Virus record (IMG/VR): IMGVR_UViG_2648501669_000017
Reading direction: 5' to 3' (one strand)
Source of the DNA: a virus
Taxonomy: Duplodnaviria > Heunggongvirae > Uroviricota > Caudoviricetes
DNA: 26,325 bases
The position numbers were made by a program, and so were the translations under genes. The notes beneath the pieces are model-generated. The model searched no databases. It was not told the DNA's origin and saw nothing but the letters and a program-made list of their open reading frames with translations. This document shows positions 10,829 through 25,911 of the stretch, piece after piece (position 1 is the stretch's first letter; the number at the start of each line of letters is the position of its first letter).

Positions 10829-10956
10829 TTTATTCTCCACGTTATATGCGCTGCATCGCGCTGAATTTTGGTTAAAGAAAACCCTCGCCTTCAGGCGATT
10901 ATTGAGTCAATTACGTTTCCATAAATGCCCCCGCAGGGGCATTTGCAGTAATGAAA

Positions 10957-11781
10957 TCAGGCGGTGAAAGTCCCAATAAAGGTTTCTACTTTGCTGTCCT
11001 TGAATTTCTCAACAAGCAGATCACGAAATTCGTTAGCCATATCTTCCTGCACCGCTTCCAGCTGAATAATGCGCAGAACCAGTACAGGACGATCGCCAGT
11101 GATAATGCTGAGGCGTAATTTAAACGGACGTTCTTTCAGACCTTCAAACGGAACGCATTTAAACTCAAATGCCACTGGCATAATGTCTTTGGTCTTCGCT
11201 TCGACAGACTCCATCAGGGAGCGTTTGCCGCTGAAGTCATTATCTTCAAAATCAGCTGTCTGGTTTGCTTCAATCGTGATTTTACGGACCGCCGCAGCCG
11301 CTTTTGTTGCCTGAATGGTGTCACCATTAGCATCAAAGCCCACAAGATAGTCGGCCCAGTCTTCAATCCATTCTGCCAGTGACTTCTGGGAGTTACGCTC
11401 GCCGTTAACAGACAACAGAGCAGAGAACGGTGCTGTCTTTTTCAGTTTGAGTGTGGCGGTGTTATCTGCGTGACCTGGTTCATCAATAGTACCCAGGTTA
11501 AGCACACTGACGGCACGCATATTATCAGCATCGATAAAGCAGCGGGTGCCTTCATCTGCAAGATCTTTAGAATAACGGGTAAAGTCATCGATGCTGGCAG
11601 TGGAAAGCGCACCACGGAAACGGAAGCGATTTAAATTAAATTTTTCCAGATCATGAATGCGGAAATTCTCAGGCAATGCCACAGCATCGGCACCAATCTT
11701 ACTGATAATTTCATTAACACCCTGAGCAGAAATAAGGGCATGGATTTGATTAATTGCGGTTGCGTCTAAGTTCTGAGACAT
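10957..11781 (-). CDS. Conserved phage protein, YfdQ-like (DUF2303-type), 274 aa
   Basis: ATG 11781 with GAGGA 7 nt upstream; length and position upstream of the YfdR-like gene match the CPS-53 yfdP-yfdQ-yfdR arrangement as recalled; no catalytic motif identified. Confidence 0.6.
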
Positions 11782-11846
11782 AATAAGTCCTCACTATATA
11801 AAGATATTCAGTGATGAGATAAATAATCAGTTAATTAAGAACGATA

Positions 11847-12209
11847 TTAATGACCTGCTGCGCGGAGTTTTCCGTCAGGTTCACCGGCAAGAGTCAGTAA
11901 TTGTCCCTGGTCTTCCTGCAGAATAGTCAGGCGACCACCGCGATTGACATACATCGGCGTTTCGGTGGTGTCTTCTTCGGAAATTTTCCCGCGGTTAGTC
12001 GGGCGAACATATGAGAGTTTGTGTTTGATTTTCACACGGTTCTCATCAAACGGTTCGATTTCCAGGTTGAGCGAGACCTTACCTTTGGTTTTCGTGTTCA
12101 TCACACCGGAAGCGACTTCACTGAGAACTGCGCCGATTTTGGTTTCAAATACGCCGCCGTCCAGCTCCCCGATAAATGCCTGCACATCAGTACTGCGTTC
12201 GCTAGCCAT
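11847..12209 (-). CDS. Hypothetical phage protein (first gene of the leftward early operon; yfdP-position)
   Basis: ORF 11847-12440 on the track, but the credible start is ATG 12209 (MASERSTDVQAFIGEL...) with GGGAG 7 nt upstream; the upstream extension is low-complexity. Confidence 0.5.
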   Translation of the reverse strand: MASERSTDVQAFIGELDGGVFETKIGAVLSEVASGVMNTKTKGKVSLNLEIEPFDENRVKIKHKLSYVRPTNRGKISEEDTTETPMYVNRGGRLTILQEDQGQLLTLAGEPDGKLRAAGH

Positions 12210-12257
12210 TTTGCTGCTCCCCATCATATCGACCCTGCAAGGTCGGTTGGTTTCTCC

Positions 12258-12346
12258 ACAAAACAGAGAAGAACACCTGCGGTGACTGCCGCCCGGATGG
12301 ATTGGGTTATGAGCCCGTCGTCCGGTGATGCTCTTCTCTGTTTTGT
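12258..12346. repeat. Perfect 15-bp inverted repeat (ACAAAACAGAGAAGA / TCTTCTCTGTTTTGT) flanking a 59-nt GC-rich spacer in the leader of the leftward early operon
   Basis: Direct reading: arms at 12258-12272 and 12332-12346. Confidence 0.7.
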
Positions 12347-12817
12347 AAAAAGAGCGGTACCAGCCGGAAGCAAGGGTACAAACTGGTACCGCCAAAGCAG
12401 TGGCTGTTGTGGTGGGGTTGTCACTCAGGCGTATGGTCAACCTGACAATCCGGTGTCCTCAACGGGGAAAGAGTAACCCCGCCATACTTACCGCCGCGCC
12501 ATTTCGCGGATTACCACAACGCTGAGAGCACTTAGCCAGTTACGGCACCACACTTTGTCGCGGCTCCATAAATGCCCTCATCGTTGCACCCTGGTCTCTT
12601 CCCAGGCGTCAAACCGAATCGCCACGCTGGTTAGGCGTCTTATCAGCATCATCATTGACTTGCACATTCCGGCTACCTGGTTTGTTTGCCCGAGCAAGGA
12701 GTGGATTGTCCCCTTTAACGTCCCCAGACCGCTAACGACGCATGTGCCATACGCCGTGTTACAACCAAATTTTGTTAGTACCTTGTTTGTTTGTCTGGAA
12801 AGAAAGATAAAATGAAG

Positions 12818-12856
12818 TTGCGCATTATGCAAGTGTTTTTGTTGCGAGATATGCAA
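12818..12856. promoter_or_regulatory. Putative oL operators / pL region: two 15-bp sites TTGCGCATTATGCAA and TTGCGAGATATGCAA
   Basis: Both share the TTGCG-N4-WWGCAA pattern with a site in the cI-cro intergenic region (13625-13639); they lie downstream of the cI terminator and upstream of the leftward operon. Confidence 0.45.
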
Positions 12857-12873
12857 TTTAAAGGGTAATGAAA

Positions 12874-12891
12874 AGCCACCTTTGGGTGGCT
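12874..12891 (-). terminator. Rho-independent terminator downstream of cI (minus strand)
   Basis: AGCCACC-tttg-GGTGGCT stem-loop followed on the minus strand by a U-rich tract (TTTTCATTACCCTTTAAATT). Confidence 0.6.
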
Positions 12892-12911
12892 AATTGATGA
12901 GGAGGTAAGGG

Positions 12912-13604
12912 TTAATTGTGTCGCTTAAGGGTTTGTGACTGGCTGATTAAGACCTTTCCAAAGACCATAAACCGGTGTTCATTTTCGCTGGTAATTCCCC
13001 ATTCACGGTAAATCTGGTTATCAGAAATCACCAGTAGTTTGTCAGGTATCATTTGCAGTCGTTTGACATAAATTTTATCATCAAAACCAAATACATAGAT
13101 ACCATCTCCATCAAACTGATTGATACTGACATCAACGAAGATGAGATCTCCTGGCTCAATGGTTGGACACATACTGTCCCCACGAACGTTGATAACTTTA
13201 ATGTGATTGGCTGGCCGTCCGCCAAACATCGATACAGCATTATCAGTTCTGTATTCAATGGCATGAATCACATCAATGACATCACCGCCCTGGATAAGGC
13301 CATTTCCCGCACTGGCACTGACATCCAGCATTTCAATACGGAATACATCCTTCACCTGCGCAACATCCTCACTAATACTGTTTTTACATACAGTATTACT
13401 TTTGACGTCTGAGGTAAAGAGATCAGCAATATCAACACCTAAGCTCCTGGCAATATTACTCAGGGCTTGTTCAGTGAATTGTTTCTGCTTACCTGTTTCC
13501 AGGCGTGAGATATTCGCCGCATCCACTCCTATTGCTTCAGCGAGATCGGCGATTTTCATGTTCTTCGCCTGGCGAAGTTGTCTGACTCGGTTTCCTATGT
13601 TCAT
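12912..13604 (-). CDS. cI: CI-type prophage repressor: N-terminal HTH (XRE family) + C-terminal S24 LexA-like autopeptidase domain
   Basis: 230 aa; HTH IADLAEAIGVDAANISRLETG; Ala-Gly at ...SASAGNG; Ser/Lys dyad motifs GDSM and YVKRL; divergent from cro; no Shine-Dalgarno before the ATG. Confidence 0.9.
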   Translation of the reverse strand: MNIGNRVRQLRQAKNMKIADLAEAIGVDAANISRLETGKQKQFTEQALSNIARSLGVDIADLFTSDVKSNTVCKNSISEDVAQVKDVFRIEMLDVSASAGNGLIQGGDVIDVIHAIEYRTDNAVSMFGGRPANHIKVINVRGDSMCPTIEPGDLIFVDVSINQFDGDGIYVFGFDDKIYVKRLQMIPDKLLVISDNQIYREWGITSENEHRFMVFGKVLISQSQTLKRHN

Positions 13605-13701
13605 GCGTTTATTACATTTCTTTATTGCGCGTTAAGCAAATCAACTTGCGCAAAATATTTGCGTGAAATAATATGCTCATCACGCAATATGTGGAGGTCA
13701 T
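13605..13701. promoter_or_regulatory. Immunity-region operator/promoter block (oR with PR and PRM)
   Basis: Clustered TTGCG / CGCAA half-sites (TTGCGCGTTAAGCAA at 13625-13639; TTGCGCAAAATATTTGCGTG at 13646-13665; CACGCAA at 13681-13687); candidate PR -35 TTGCGC (13646-13651) and -10 ATAATA (13669-13674) with 17-nt spacing upstream of the cro RBS GGAGG. Confidence 0.55.
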
Positions 13702-13962
13702 ATGCAATCACCATTACGGAATGTGCGTAAGGCGCACGGATTTACTTTGCAGCATGTTGCTGCTGGCGTTCAGGTCAATCCAGCGACGCTGAGTCGTATT
13801 GAAAGACTGGAACAAATTCCATCTATCGATCTTGCAGAACGTCTGGCCAATTTTTTTAAGGGTGAAATCAGCGAAATGCAGATTCTTTATCCGGCACGTT
13901 TTCAATCTAGCCAAAACCAGAATGGGTTTAAACCACAGGAACAGGAGGTAAGCCGTGGGTAA
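13702..13962 (+). CDS. cro: Cro-like HTH regulator (XRE family)
   Basis: 86 aa, HTH TLQHVAAGVQVNPATLSRIE; divergently transcribed from cI across the operator region; GGAGG 4 nt before the ATG. Confidence 0.8.
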   Translation: MQSPLRNVRKAHGFTLQHVAAGVQVNPATLSRIERLEQIPSIDLAERLANFFKGEISEMQILYPARFQSSQNQNGFKPQEQEVSRG

Positions 13963-14856: not shown

Positions 14857-15798
14857 ATGAGCACTAAATTAACCGGCTATGTATGGGATGGTTGCGCTGC
14901 GTCAGGCATGAAATTATCCAGCGTGGCAATTATGGCCCGCCTGGCTGATTTCAGTAATGACGAAGGTGTGTGCTGGCCATCAATTGAAACTATTGCCCGT
15001 CAGATTGGCGCGGGGATGAGTACCGTCAGAACGGCTATCGCACGGCTGGAAGCAGAAGGCTGGTTAACGCGTAAGGCGCGTCGCCAGGGTAACCGCAATG
15101 CGTCGAATGTTTATCAGCTTAACGTTGCGAAGCTTCAGGCAGTGGCATTTTCTCAACTGTCAGATTCTGACCCGTCAAAATCTGACGCATCAAAATCTGA
15201 CACGTCAAAATTTGATGCGTCGAAATCTGGCAAAAAAGCGGGTTTTCACCCGTCAGAATCTGGCGGGGATCCGTCAGTAAAATCAAAACATGATCCGTCA
15301 GATAAAAAACCTTCTCGTCCGGACGCTTCGCAACCGGACACGCAGACGGCTGAACAGGATTTTTTAACTCGCCATCCTGATGCGGTTGTATTCAGCCCTA
15401 AAAAGCGCCAGTGGGGAACGCAGGATGATTTGACCTGCGCACAGTGGCTCTGGAAAAAAATCATTGCCCTGTACGAGCAGGCCGCCGAATGTGACGGCGA
15501 GGTGGTTCGTCCCAAAGAACCGAACTGGACAGCCTGGGCAAACGAAATTCGCCTGATGTGTGTGCAGGATGGTCGTACTCACAAACAAATCTGCGAGATG
15601 TACAGCCGCGTCAGCCGCGATCCGTTCTGGTGCCGTAACGTGCTCAGCCCGTCGAAGCTGCGGGAAAAATGGGATGAGCTTTCCCTGCGCTTATCGCCGT
15701 CCATCAGCACATACACAGAAAAACGCGAAGACCCGTATTTCAAATCCAGTTACGACAACGTGGACTACAGCCAGATCCCGGCAGGATTCAGGGGGTGA
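14857..15798 (+). CDS. Replication initiation protein (lambda O-like: N-terminal HTH iteron-binding domain, internal repeat region, C-terminal replisome-organiser domain)
   Basis: 313 aa; ATG 14857 after AGAGG; N-terminal wHTH (SSVAIMARLADFSNDEGVCWPSIETIARQIGAGMSTVRTAIARLEAEGW); internal SKSDx peptide repeats encoded by DNA iterons; position after cro/cII. Confidence 0.8.
   Translation: MSTKLTGYVWDGCAASGMKLSSVAIMARLADFSNDEGVCWPSIETIARQIGAGMSTVRTAIARLEAEGWLTRKARRQGNRNASNVYQLNVAKLQAVAFSQLSDSDPSKSDASKSDTSKFDASKSGKKAGFHPSESGGDPSVKSKHDPSDKKPSRPDASQPDTQTAEQDFLTRHPDAVVFSPKKRQWGTQDDLTCAQWLWKKIIALYEQAAECDGEVVRPKEPNWTAWANEIRLMCVQDGRTHKQICEMYSRVSRDPFWCRNVLSPSKLREKWDELSLRLSPSISTYTEKREDPYFKSSYDNVDYSQIPAGFRG
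15161..15263. repeat. Putative phage origin of replication: about four 14-15-bp iterons (consensus GTCAAAATCTGAC, each an internal GTCA...TGAC inverted repeat) inside the O-like gene
   Basis: Direct reading: GTCAAAATCTGAC (15174), ATCAAAATCTGAC (15189), GTCAAAATTTGAT (15203), GTCGAAATCTGGC (15218), flanked by degenerate copies, followed by an A-rich stretch. Confidence 0.6.
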
Positions 15799-19478: not shown

Positions 19479-19495
19479 TTTTGTGGAGGAAGTTG

Positions 19496-19867
19496 ATGCG
19501 TGATATTCAAATGGTTCTTGAACGTTGGGGGGCATGGGCGGCTAATAATCATGAGGATGTGACCTGGTCGTCCATTGCTGCCGGTTTTAAGGGATTACTT
19601 CCTTCAAAAGTAAAATCCCGTCCGCAATGTTGTGACGATGACGCGATGATCATTTGCGGGTGCATGGCCCGTCTGAAAAAGAACAACAGCGATTTGCACG
19701 ATTTATTAGTAGATTATTATGTAGGTGGTATGACGTTTATGGCGCTTGCCCGTAAACATGGGCGTTCTGATTGCTGGGTTGGGCGCTTATTGCAAAAGGC
19801 AGAAGGCATCATTGAAGGTATGTTGATAATGTTAGAAATAGAATTGGAAATGGACTCAAATATCTAG
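19496..19867 (+). CDS. Q: Late-gene antiterminator Q (QuuD / phage-82-type Q family)
   Basis: ATG 19496 with GGAGGA 5 nt upstream (track start 19481 is TTG); [34 protein letters not shown]...[17 protein letters not shown] matches my recollection of DLP12 QuuD; sits just before the late region. Confidence 0.8.
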
Positions 19868-25734: not shown

Positions 25735-25911
25735 CGCGGGTTTTCGCTATTTATGAAAATTTTCCGGTTTAAGGCGTTTCCGTTCTTCTTCGTCGTAACT
25801 TAATGTTTTTATTTAAAATACCCCCTGAAAAGAAAGGAAACGACAGGTGCTGAAAACGAACTTTTGGGCCTTTGTCGTTTCCTTTCTCTGTTTTTGGCCG
25901 TGGAATGAACA

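Follow-up and report, generated by a model that had tools for sequence, protein, structure and literature searches.

The longest local inverted repeat in the 26,325-nt stretch of phage DNA analysed here (hereafter the window) is the closing helix of a conserved RNA read from the pL sense strand, and not a DNA palindrome. By prediction and covariation, this RNA folds into a three-way junction in the leader of the leftward early operon, and one of its arms ends in a stem and loop that appear to copy the anticodon arm of initiator tRNA.

The window is an Escherichia coli prophage of the mEp460 / SfII / CPS-53 type, identical copies of which occur in many E. coli genomes, and its leftward operon starts with yfdP, followed by yfdQ and yfdR and continuing to xis and int. 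The pL leader in front of yfdP is about 590 nt long, and the NCBI pipeline (PGAP) annotates nothing there. Its elements follow one another in the order pL (around 12800), a structured leader of about 400 nt that includes the sRNA-17 region, a terminator, the three-way junction, a small hairpin, the Shine-Dalgarno sequence and yfdP. The features and the evidence for each are as follows.

12912-13604, minus strand: cI
12891-12874: terminator of cI (terminator scan)
12804-12856, minus strand: probable pL, with -35 TTGCAT at 12832-12827 and -10 TATCTT at 12809-12804 (by eye)
12817-12832 and 12841-12856: two 16-bp operator repeats overlapped by pL (repeat search)
12346-12392, minus strand: terminator directly 5' of the junction, a 10-bp G+C stem (12392-12383 / 12363-12354) followed by UCUUUUU (repeat search; 3'-RACE end at 12348)
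12253-12351, minus strand: whole three-way junction (P1, P2 and P3), holding the inverted repeat (minimum-free-energy fold; covariation in 66 homologs)
12327-12351, minus strand: 5' strand of P1, UUUUUACAAAACAGAGAAGAGCAUC, including the right arm of the repeat, 12332-12346 (fold; covariation)
12293-12325, minus strand: P2 arm, made of a CCGGA/UCCGG helix, internal loops, GA/UC pairs and GGG-CUCAUAA-CCC (fold; covariation; covariance model R1)
12299-12319, minus strand: 21-nt conserved core that caps P2, GACGGGCUCAUAACCCAAUCC, that is, GAC-GGG-CUCAUAA-CCC-AAUCC (position search)
12279-12292, minus strand: P3 arm, GCGG-CAGUCA-CCGC (fold; pairs 61-64/96-99 covary)
12253-12277, minus strand: 3' strand of P1, GGUGUUCUUCUCUGUUUUGUGGAGA, including the left arm of the repeat, 12258-12272 (fold; covariation)
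12230-12245, minus strand: small hairpin CGACC-UUGCAG-GGUCG, between the junction and the ribosome-binding site
12207-12222, minus strand: Shine-Dalgarno sequence GGGGAG (12222-12217) and start codon of yfdP (12209-12207)

The repeat consists of ACAAAACAGAGAAGA (12258-12272) and its exact reverse complement (12332-12346), with a gap of 59 nt in which 38 bases are G or C by manual count. A preliminary description of the window had reported these 15-bp arms and their GC-rich spacer in a leader region of about 700 bp, and both the repeat and its location were confirmed: about 45 nt separate it from the downstream start codon of yfdP (12209), and the NCBI pipeline places no gene in the surrounding stretch of roughly 700 bp. 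A repeat search further lengthened the arms to 25 nt at 84% complementarity, and ranked the 15-nt perfect repeat above all other local inverted repeats of the window, where the expected number of perfect 15-nt inverted repeats no more than 150 nt apart is about 0.004 (26325 x 150 x 4^-15). The same description had noted the absence of an N-like gene, and indeed no N-like ORF is evident in the window, which does carry a Q-type late antiterminator at 19481-19867 (Pfam PF06530, E = 1.8e-51). Another strong hairpin, with 26-nt arms of 81% complementarity and a 5-nt loop, is located near the right end of the window (25831-25887).

Folded as minus-strand RNA, that is, on the sense strand of pL and yfdP, the two arms form a stem, P1, of 25 continuous pairs including G.U, which closes the three-way junction from 12351 to 12253. 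The predicted energy is -51.2 kcal/mol (z = -8.3), and none of 200 shuffled sequences folded equally well; the plus strand gave a weaker fold (-45.7 kcal/mol). The repeat is not an intrinsic terminator, as its flanks (GUGGAGAAAC on the minus strand, AAAAAGAG on the plus strand) bring no direct U-tract and the terminator scan does not list it.

Homologs were collected by BLAST against phage records, by a pattern scan of one genome per species and by scans of viral contigs, and 66 distinct homologs from Enterobacterales prophages were assembled in an alignment (A4). In this alignment 96.0% of the cells form a standard pair, against 40.6-50.9% when the 3' partner is slid by one to three columns, and double-sided changes occur at 10 pairs. 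These changes fill 113 cells, compared with 34.6 +/- 4.2 in shuffled alignments, none of which reached 113 in 500 trials. The P1 pairs (columns 6-25/102-121) are 95.5% paired and include six that covary; columns 9/118, for example, hold either C-G or A-U (38 vs 20 sequences), and columns 14/113 either G-C or C-G (40 vs 26 sequences). The length of P1, 20-25 bp, is maintained along with this covariation across the 66 pL-type homologs, and P3 ranges in size among relatives from 4 bp up to inserts of about 40 nt. RNAalifold independently recovered P1 and the GGG/CCC stem. Over 52 distinct flank types, the P2 helix flanking the core is 82.5% paired, as opposed to 26-54% in the slid controls, with a covariation score of 0.230 vs 0.102 +/- 0.011 after shuffling (0.230 was reached in none of 500 shuffles).

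The pairing also has a direction. Columns 24/103 are U.G in 59 of the 66 sequences, a pair formable only in minus-strand RNA, and G.U pairs are found at columns 8/119 in 19 sequences and at columns 21/106 in 17; read on the opposite strand, these conserved wobble pairs turn into C.A mismatches. Compensatory changes, together with a U.G pair specific to the minus strand, therefore indicate an RNA element rather than a DNA site. The preliminary description had suggested, among other readings, that the leftward early leader might encode an element acting as RNA, and named folding and covariation across homologous prophages as a check; the pairing turned out to be conserved with compensatory changes in the 66 homologs, and such changes across many prophages support that proposal. 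Its DNA-level readings, a protein-binding or a recombination site, are contradicted by the conserved G.U pairs and the strand-specific covariation. More generally, a site acting as DNA, be it a protein-binding palindrome, a recombination site or a miniature transposable element, would account for the perfection of the 15-bp arms, but we find it barely credible: the arms undergo compensatory substitutions around a wobble pair that has no equivalent on the other strand, the spacer has covarying helices of its own, and the copies keep the same leader context, with none scattered.

A coding origin of the conservation was likewise rejected, since homologs differ in length by amounts not divisible by three (+1, +2, +4, +23 nt and others), which breaks the frame. 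As a separate observation, the yfdP frame is open for 77 codons further upstream, through the whole hairpin and up to 12440, giving a 197-aa ORF with a TTG start (11847-12440, minus strand), and some phage records have hypothetical proteins annotated here; indels in homologs interrupt the frame.

Within the core, the 14 bases CGGGCUCAUAACCC (12304-12317) recur without a change in the anticodon stem-loop of the initiator tRNA-fMet of E. coli (K-12 metZ). They comprise three consecutive G-C pairs, the mark of initiator tRNAs, and the entire 7-nt loop CUCAUAA (12307-12313), U33 and the anticodon CAU included. The preliminary description had passed over this likeness, which stands out most among the features of the element. 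A small covariance model built on P2 (R1) found a single copy in the window (64.6 bits; next match 9.8 bits, E = 1.2), and cross-matched the anticodon stem-loops of metZ, metW and metV. Many of the homologs were retrieved with a pattern that requires the core, the invariance of which is then partly a product of construction. In a second viral scan, anchored on the P1 and P2 stems alone and not requiring the loop, YUCAU and CCCAAUC were nevertheless invariant among the true relatives, and loop positions 37 and 38 varied (AA, UA, UC, AC, AU); occasional changes of the core were GGG to GG, CCC to UCC and C32 to U.

To judge by these sequences, the resemblance to the initiator anticodon arm appears strong, although not strict at positions 37 and 38. 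True tRNAs retain a purine at position 37. Compared with the initiator tRNAs (metZ/W/V, metY), with which it shares the 14 identical bases, P2 lacks acceptor, D and T arms, and has a conserved internal loop (GAC ... AAUCC) where a real anticodon stem has its lower two pairs. Consistently, ARAGORN found no tRNA gene and the Rfam tRNA model gave no match even at E <= 10. No family of Rfam 15 matched the window at its gathering threshold, and relaxing this to E <= 10 yielded noise alone in 11700-13800. A full-text literature search for the core sequence returned papers on tRNA-fMet itself and nothing else, and a term search for initiator-tRNA mimicry in prophages returned nothing relevant. The motif, a three-armed leader RNA with an initiator-type loop, appears to be undescribed.

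Three other functions for the loops were considered and discarded: an antisense target of the P2 loop in the window, as GGGTTATGAGCCC has 7 matches where 5.2 are expected by chance; pairing of the loop extended to the start-codon context, which by eye was inconsistent across relatives; and mimicry of an anti-Shine-Dalgarno sequence by the P3 loops, which is unsupported in this window.

Lying downstream of the terminator at 12392-12346, the junction is made only on read-through transcripts, and the first bases of the P1 5' strand overlap the terminator U-tract. In relatives the terminator stem has a wholly different sequence, with a G+C hairpin and a U-tract always kept. A likeness to boxA (CGCUCUUUUUACAA) corresponds to the end of the terminator stem and its U-tract, and is lost in relatives with different stems; an ops-like GGCGGTA in the 5' arm of the terminator is GGCGGC in many relatives. 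Both candidates were dropped. The promoter scan did not call pL.

In E. coli K1 RS218, 5'/3' RACE and Northern blotting have defined a 193-nt RNA, sRNA-17, that comes from an mEp460-like prophage (Sun et al., 2020; PMC7719688). Its 'full length F' primer maps to 12348-12379 of the window (plus strand, one mismatch) and its antisense 5'-RACE primer to 12395-12413 (plus strand), which places sRNA-17 on the minus strand with its 3' end at 12348, in the terminator U-tract. The RACE end confirms that the hairpin 12392-12354 is a working terminator (PMC7719688). sRNA-17 therefore comes from the same prophage leader and strand as the element and its terminator U-tract overlaps the base of P1, whereas the middle module of the region differs between RS218 and the window. 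Reads of yfdP numbered about 0 in the wild-type lysogen, and replacement of sRNA-17 by a cassette raised yfdP about 95-fold (PMC7719688). This rise is likely a cis effect on read-through and not an effect in trans.

The idea that the repeat might encode a small RNA, also raised beforehand, was therefore right about the neighbourhood, as a published small RNA adjoins, and wrong about the repeat, which starts 2 nt past the 3' end of sRNA-17 and lies outside it. For the junction to belong to a small RNA, it would have to form the 3' portion of sRNA-17 or else be a separate RNA released by processing, acting in trans via its CUCAUAA loop. The adjacency of sRNA-17 speaks for this reading, and a cut by RNase III in P1 could conceivably free a stable fragment of about 60-70 nt; yet the RACE-defined 3' end is upstream of the element, complements of the loop occur in the window at chance frequency and yfdP has almost no reads in the wild-type lysogen (PMC7719688), which together make it very improbable.

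The upstream leader has further modules of its own. The segment 12348-12513 (minus strand) is the sRNA-17 homolog, ending at the terminator 12392-12346, and its 5' boundary (CGUUGUGG) falls where a tRNA-Arg gene is located in phiV10-like phages; this coincidence suggests that the 5' end of sRNA-17 may be a processing site rather than a transcription start. The promoter-proximal part (12514-12770, minus strand), treated by Sun et al. as the sRNA-17 'promoter' (PMC7719688), is a second conserved structured RNA without an Rfam match, with the invariant blocks ACGGCGUAUGGCACAUGCGYCG, GGUAGCCGGAAUGUGCAAG and CGGAAGAGAC and the covarying hairpins CCUGG/CCAGG, CCGG/CCGG and CCUCG/CGAGG. It is found directly after tRNA-Ile and before ban in phages P1 and D6, directly 5' of tRNA-Arg in phiV10/epsilon15-like and Klebsiella phages and in the pL leader of mEp390; of 5426 complete E. 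coli genomes, 1833 contain it without an annotation. Between 12405 and 12480 (minus strand), a hairpin followed by (A)CCACAAC (GGGGUU...AACCCC-ACCA-CAAC) resembles a tRNA acceptor end with discriminator base and CCA. This module recurs in pL leaders, in a late-operon leader (L161 3196-3222) and just before tciA in phage P1 (L004 3500-3530, minus strand), and may be a signal for RNase P or tRNA processing.

On the other side of the junction, the small hairpin reads GGCGG-UGGCA-GCCGCC or similar in relatives. UUGCAG, GUGCAGA or UGGCAG loops recur both in this hairpin before the ribosome-binding site and in P3 of many relatives, and may represent a shared protein- or RNA-binding loop. Further along the operon, a weak terminator-like hairpin (10885-10898, minus strand; TCGCCTGAAGGCGA then GGGTTTTCTT) separates yfdQ from yfdR. 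In E. coli K-12, CPS-53 retains yfdP and lacks the whole leader, and K-12 data sets are uninformative on the element. Inverted and direct iterons (GACGGGTCAGAATCTG / GACGCATCAAAATCTGAC) that lie within the O-like replication gene of the window (15161-15262, plus strand; also L003 3380-3510), and are probably the replication origin, are fused directly upstream of yfdP in K-12 CPS-53, from which it follows that cI, cro and the whole leader were deleted there.

The capped P2 arm within a three-way junction is not confined to this leader, and was found in at least four further settings, always on the sense strand of the downstream gene. At most loci an ORF on the same strand begins about 35-115 nt downstream, with a few starting further away, and the spacing between junction and start codon thus varies. 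The families of these ORFs have no relation to one another (YfdP-like, RdgC-like, holin plus endolysin, inovirus-type Rep). The pL-type leaders, which precede YfdP-like or RdgC-like genes, are distributed over prophages of more than 12 Enterobacterales genera. At two loci (L015, L114) the element comes directly after the promoter and operators, without a long leader or terminator. Another type is found in late-operon leaders of Enterobacterales prophages (L161 3420-3640, L023, L033, L040, L162 and others), where one or two intrinsic terminators precede it and holin (PF16083) and endolysin (PF05838 + PF09374) genes follow at about 100 nt, and has a P1 of 5-6 bp. Records of cultured phages contain almost no match to this holin-type variant; the lysis region of the window itself holds no copy of the element, and a Q-like ORF upstream of one holin-type leader had no Pfam match.

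Elsewhere, the element was identified upstream of inovirus-type replication initiator genes (PF23343) in high-G+C metagenome contigs, with the loop CUCAUAC; in a MAG and a virus of Acidobacteria, in an intergenic position 37 nt ahead of the following start codon; and in gut-metagenome phages (L072 type). Phage P1 carries a divergent junction in the sense of the ban operon (L004 3636-3672, minus strand), about 175 nt upstream of tciA and with the loop UUCAUAU, scoring 19 bits (E = 0.022). This copy is followed by a segment, CGUUGCGGUGAAUGCGG, that resembles the 5' end of sRNA-17, and the combination argues that leader modules are shuffled between phages.

What might such an element do? We propose that it would act in cis on the expression of the first cistron, via an initiator-tRNA-like arm shown to the translation-initiation machinery. 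The likely partner would be the 30S P site with IF3, which together recognise initiator tRNA by its three G-C pairs and CAU anticodon, and it is from the presence of these very features in the core that we infer mimicry. The 21-nt core is near-identical across phyla, being found in more than 12 Enterobacterales genera, Acidobacteria, inovirus-like contigs and phage P1, which argues that the partner is itself universally conserved. An action in cis is suggested by the sense-strand position upstream of an ORF, whatever that ORF encodes. The element could either hold a standby 30S subunit beside the ribosome-binding site or compete with fMet-tRNA; and in the present subfamily, the P1 of 20-25 bp would probably be cut by RNase III as well, parting the yfdP message from the long leader. 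Against mimicry stand the variable positions 37 and 38, the internal loop unlike that of a tRNA and the unfixed distance to the start codon. This combined mechanism, a cis-acting mimic of the initiator anticodon arm on yfdP initiation plus an RNase III cut of P1, is therefore advanced tentatively, as an account whose chances fall clearly short of even.

The rival accounts each explain a part of these data. Cleavage of P1 by RNase III might be all there is, setting the half-life or translatability of the yfdP message, with the tRNA-like loop as a relic or a structural cap. The continuous 25-bp duplex is longer than the roughly 20 bp of nearly unbroken double-stranded RNA expected of an RNase III site, its length is preserved with covariation in the pL-type homologs, and it occupies the same place as the lambda N-leader site, behind a long leader and ahead of the first pL gene. 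The lambda hairpin, which RNase III processes, lies between nutL and the N ribosome-binding site, and is likewise long, nearly perfect and directly upstream of the first early-left gene. The element nevertheless differs from it in being a three-way junction with a sequence-invariant apical arm, in a window without a nut site or an N gene; here the RNase III cut is a prediction. Processing alone would leave the near-invariant 21-nt core across phyla unexplained, and some relatives have a P1 of 5-6 bp, too short for RNase III; with a stem of that length in the holin-type relatives, RNase III cleavage is not the common function of the family. We regard this account as unlikely, if far from negligible; that the repeat may be a processing site at all, one of the possibilities raised beforehand, is still plausible in view of the 25-bp helix. 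An alternative that does address the core is a decoy, inhibitor or sensor for an enzyme that recognises the initiator anticodon arm, such as toxins of the VapC type with a PIN domain. VapC is said, after work by Winther and Gerdes in 2011, to cut tRNA-fMet between A38 and C39. The 14-nt identity to the tRNA-fMet stem-loop would suit such bait, the relatives vary at 37 and 38, adjoining this cleavage site, and the element is found in early, late and replication operon leaders of mobile elements. Carried by the early and late transcripts that a phage makes most abundantly, it would have an anti-defence function. Action in trans, however, needs no sense-strand place immediately upstream of an ORF in every context, and one copy per transcript is a poor match for the abundance of tRNA-fMet; we consider a decoy improbable.

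Put-like antitermination, which had been suggested for this leader at the outset, found no support. In such a scheme, the nascent junction would bind RNA polymerase and let it read through downstream terminators in a phage without N. The put RNAs are present after both pL and pR, bind the zinc-binding domain of the RNA polymerase beta' subunit and suppress terminators. With HK022 put the element shares its nature as a cis-acting structured RNA and its place in the early leader of a lambdoid phage without N; further points in favour are an operon that ends with xis and int, the promoter-proximal position of the element in L015 and L114, and the weak terminator-like hairpin at 10898-10885. Its sequence, however, has no similarity to putL or putR: local alignment to HK022 putL scored 26, against 23.2 +/- 3.7 for shuffled sequences (71 of 300 at least as high), and to putR 22, against 22.0 +/- 3.1 (151 of 300). 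HK022 put consists of two adjacent stem-loops, about 70 nt in total, that adopt a V shape not closed by a long helix (PMC9378689), whereas the element is a closed three-way junction. Instead of paired copies after pL and pR, the window has one copy and none downstream of pR; the element stands downstream of the leader's own terminator, and relatives also precede inovirus rep genes and, in late leaders, a holin gene. We find a put-like function distinctly improbable.

The precedent closest in logic to the proposed initiation mimic is the thrS operator of E. coli, also an mRNA-leader hairpin that copies a tRNA anticodon stem-loop beside a ribosome-binding site. The thrS operator mimics tRNA-Thr, is bound by ThrRS and autoregulates a cellular gene, whereas here the model is the initiator tRNA and the genes are unrelated phage genes; the analogy suggests that the mechanism might be competition at the 30S-binding step. 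The element is thus no member of the lambda N-leader, thrS or put systems, of which lambda is nearest by position and shape, thrS by logic and put by genomic setting.

Whatever its function, this is a widespread RNA motif left blank by annotation pipelines, PGAP placing nothing over the leader in the records examined, and its delimitation clarifies the sRNA-17 locus, where the sRNA ends at a terminator inside the pL leader. The element may be the founding example of a class of leader RNAs of phages and mobile elements that functionally mimic the initiator anticodon arm, either for docking in cis at the 30S P site, as control or pre-loading of the first gene of early, late or replication operons, or as bait for enzymes specific for tRNA-fMet; we would place the chances of this only a little below even. 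If the mimicry is functional, temperate phages from several bacterial phyla place a copy of the initiator anticodon arm before the first gene of key operons. This would be a new coupling of phage expression to host translation initiation or to tRNA-targeting defences. Viral IRES elements mimic P-site or A-site tRNA, and the leader RNA described here would, if this holds true, be their first bacterial counterpart.
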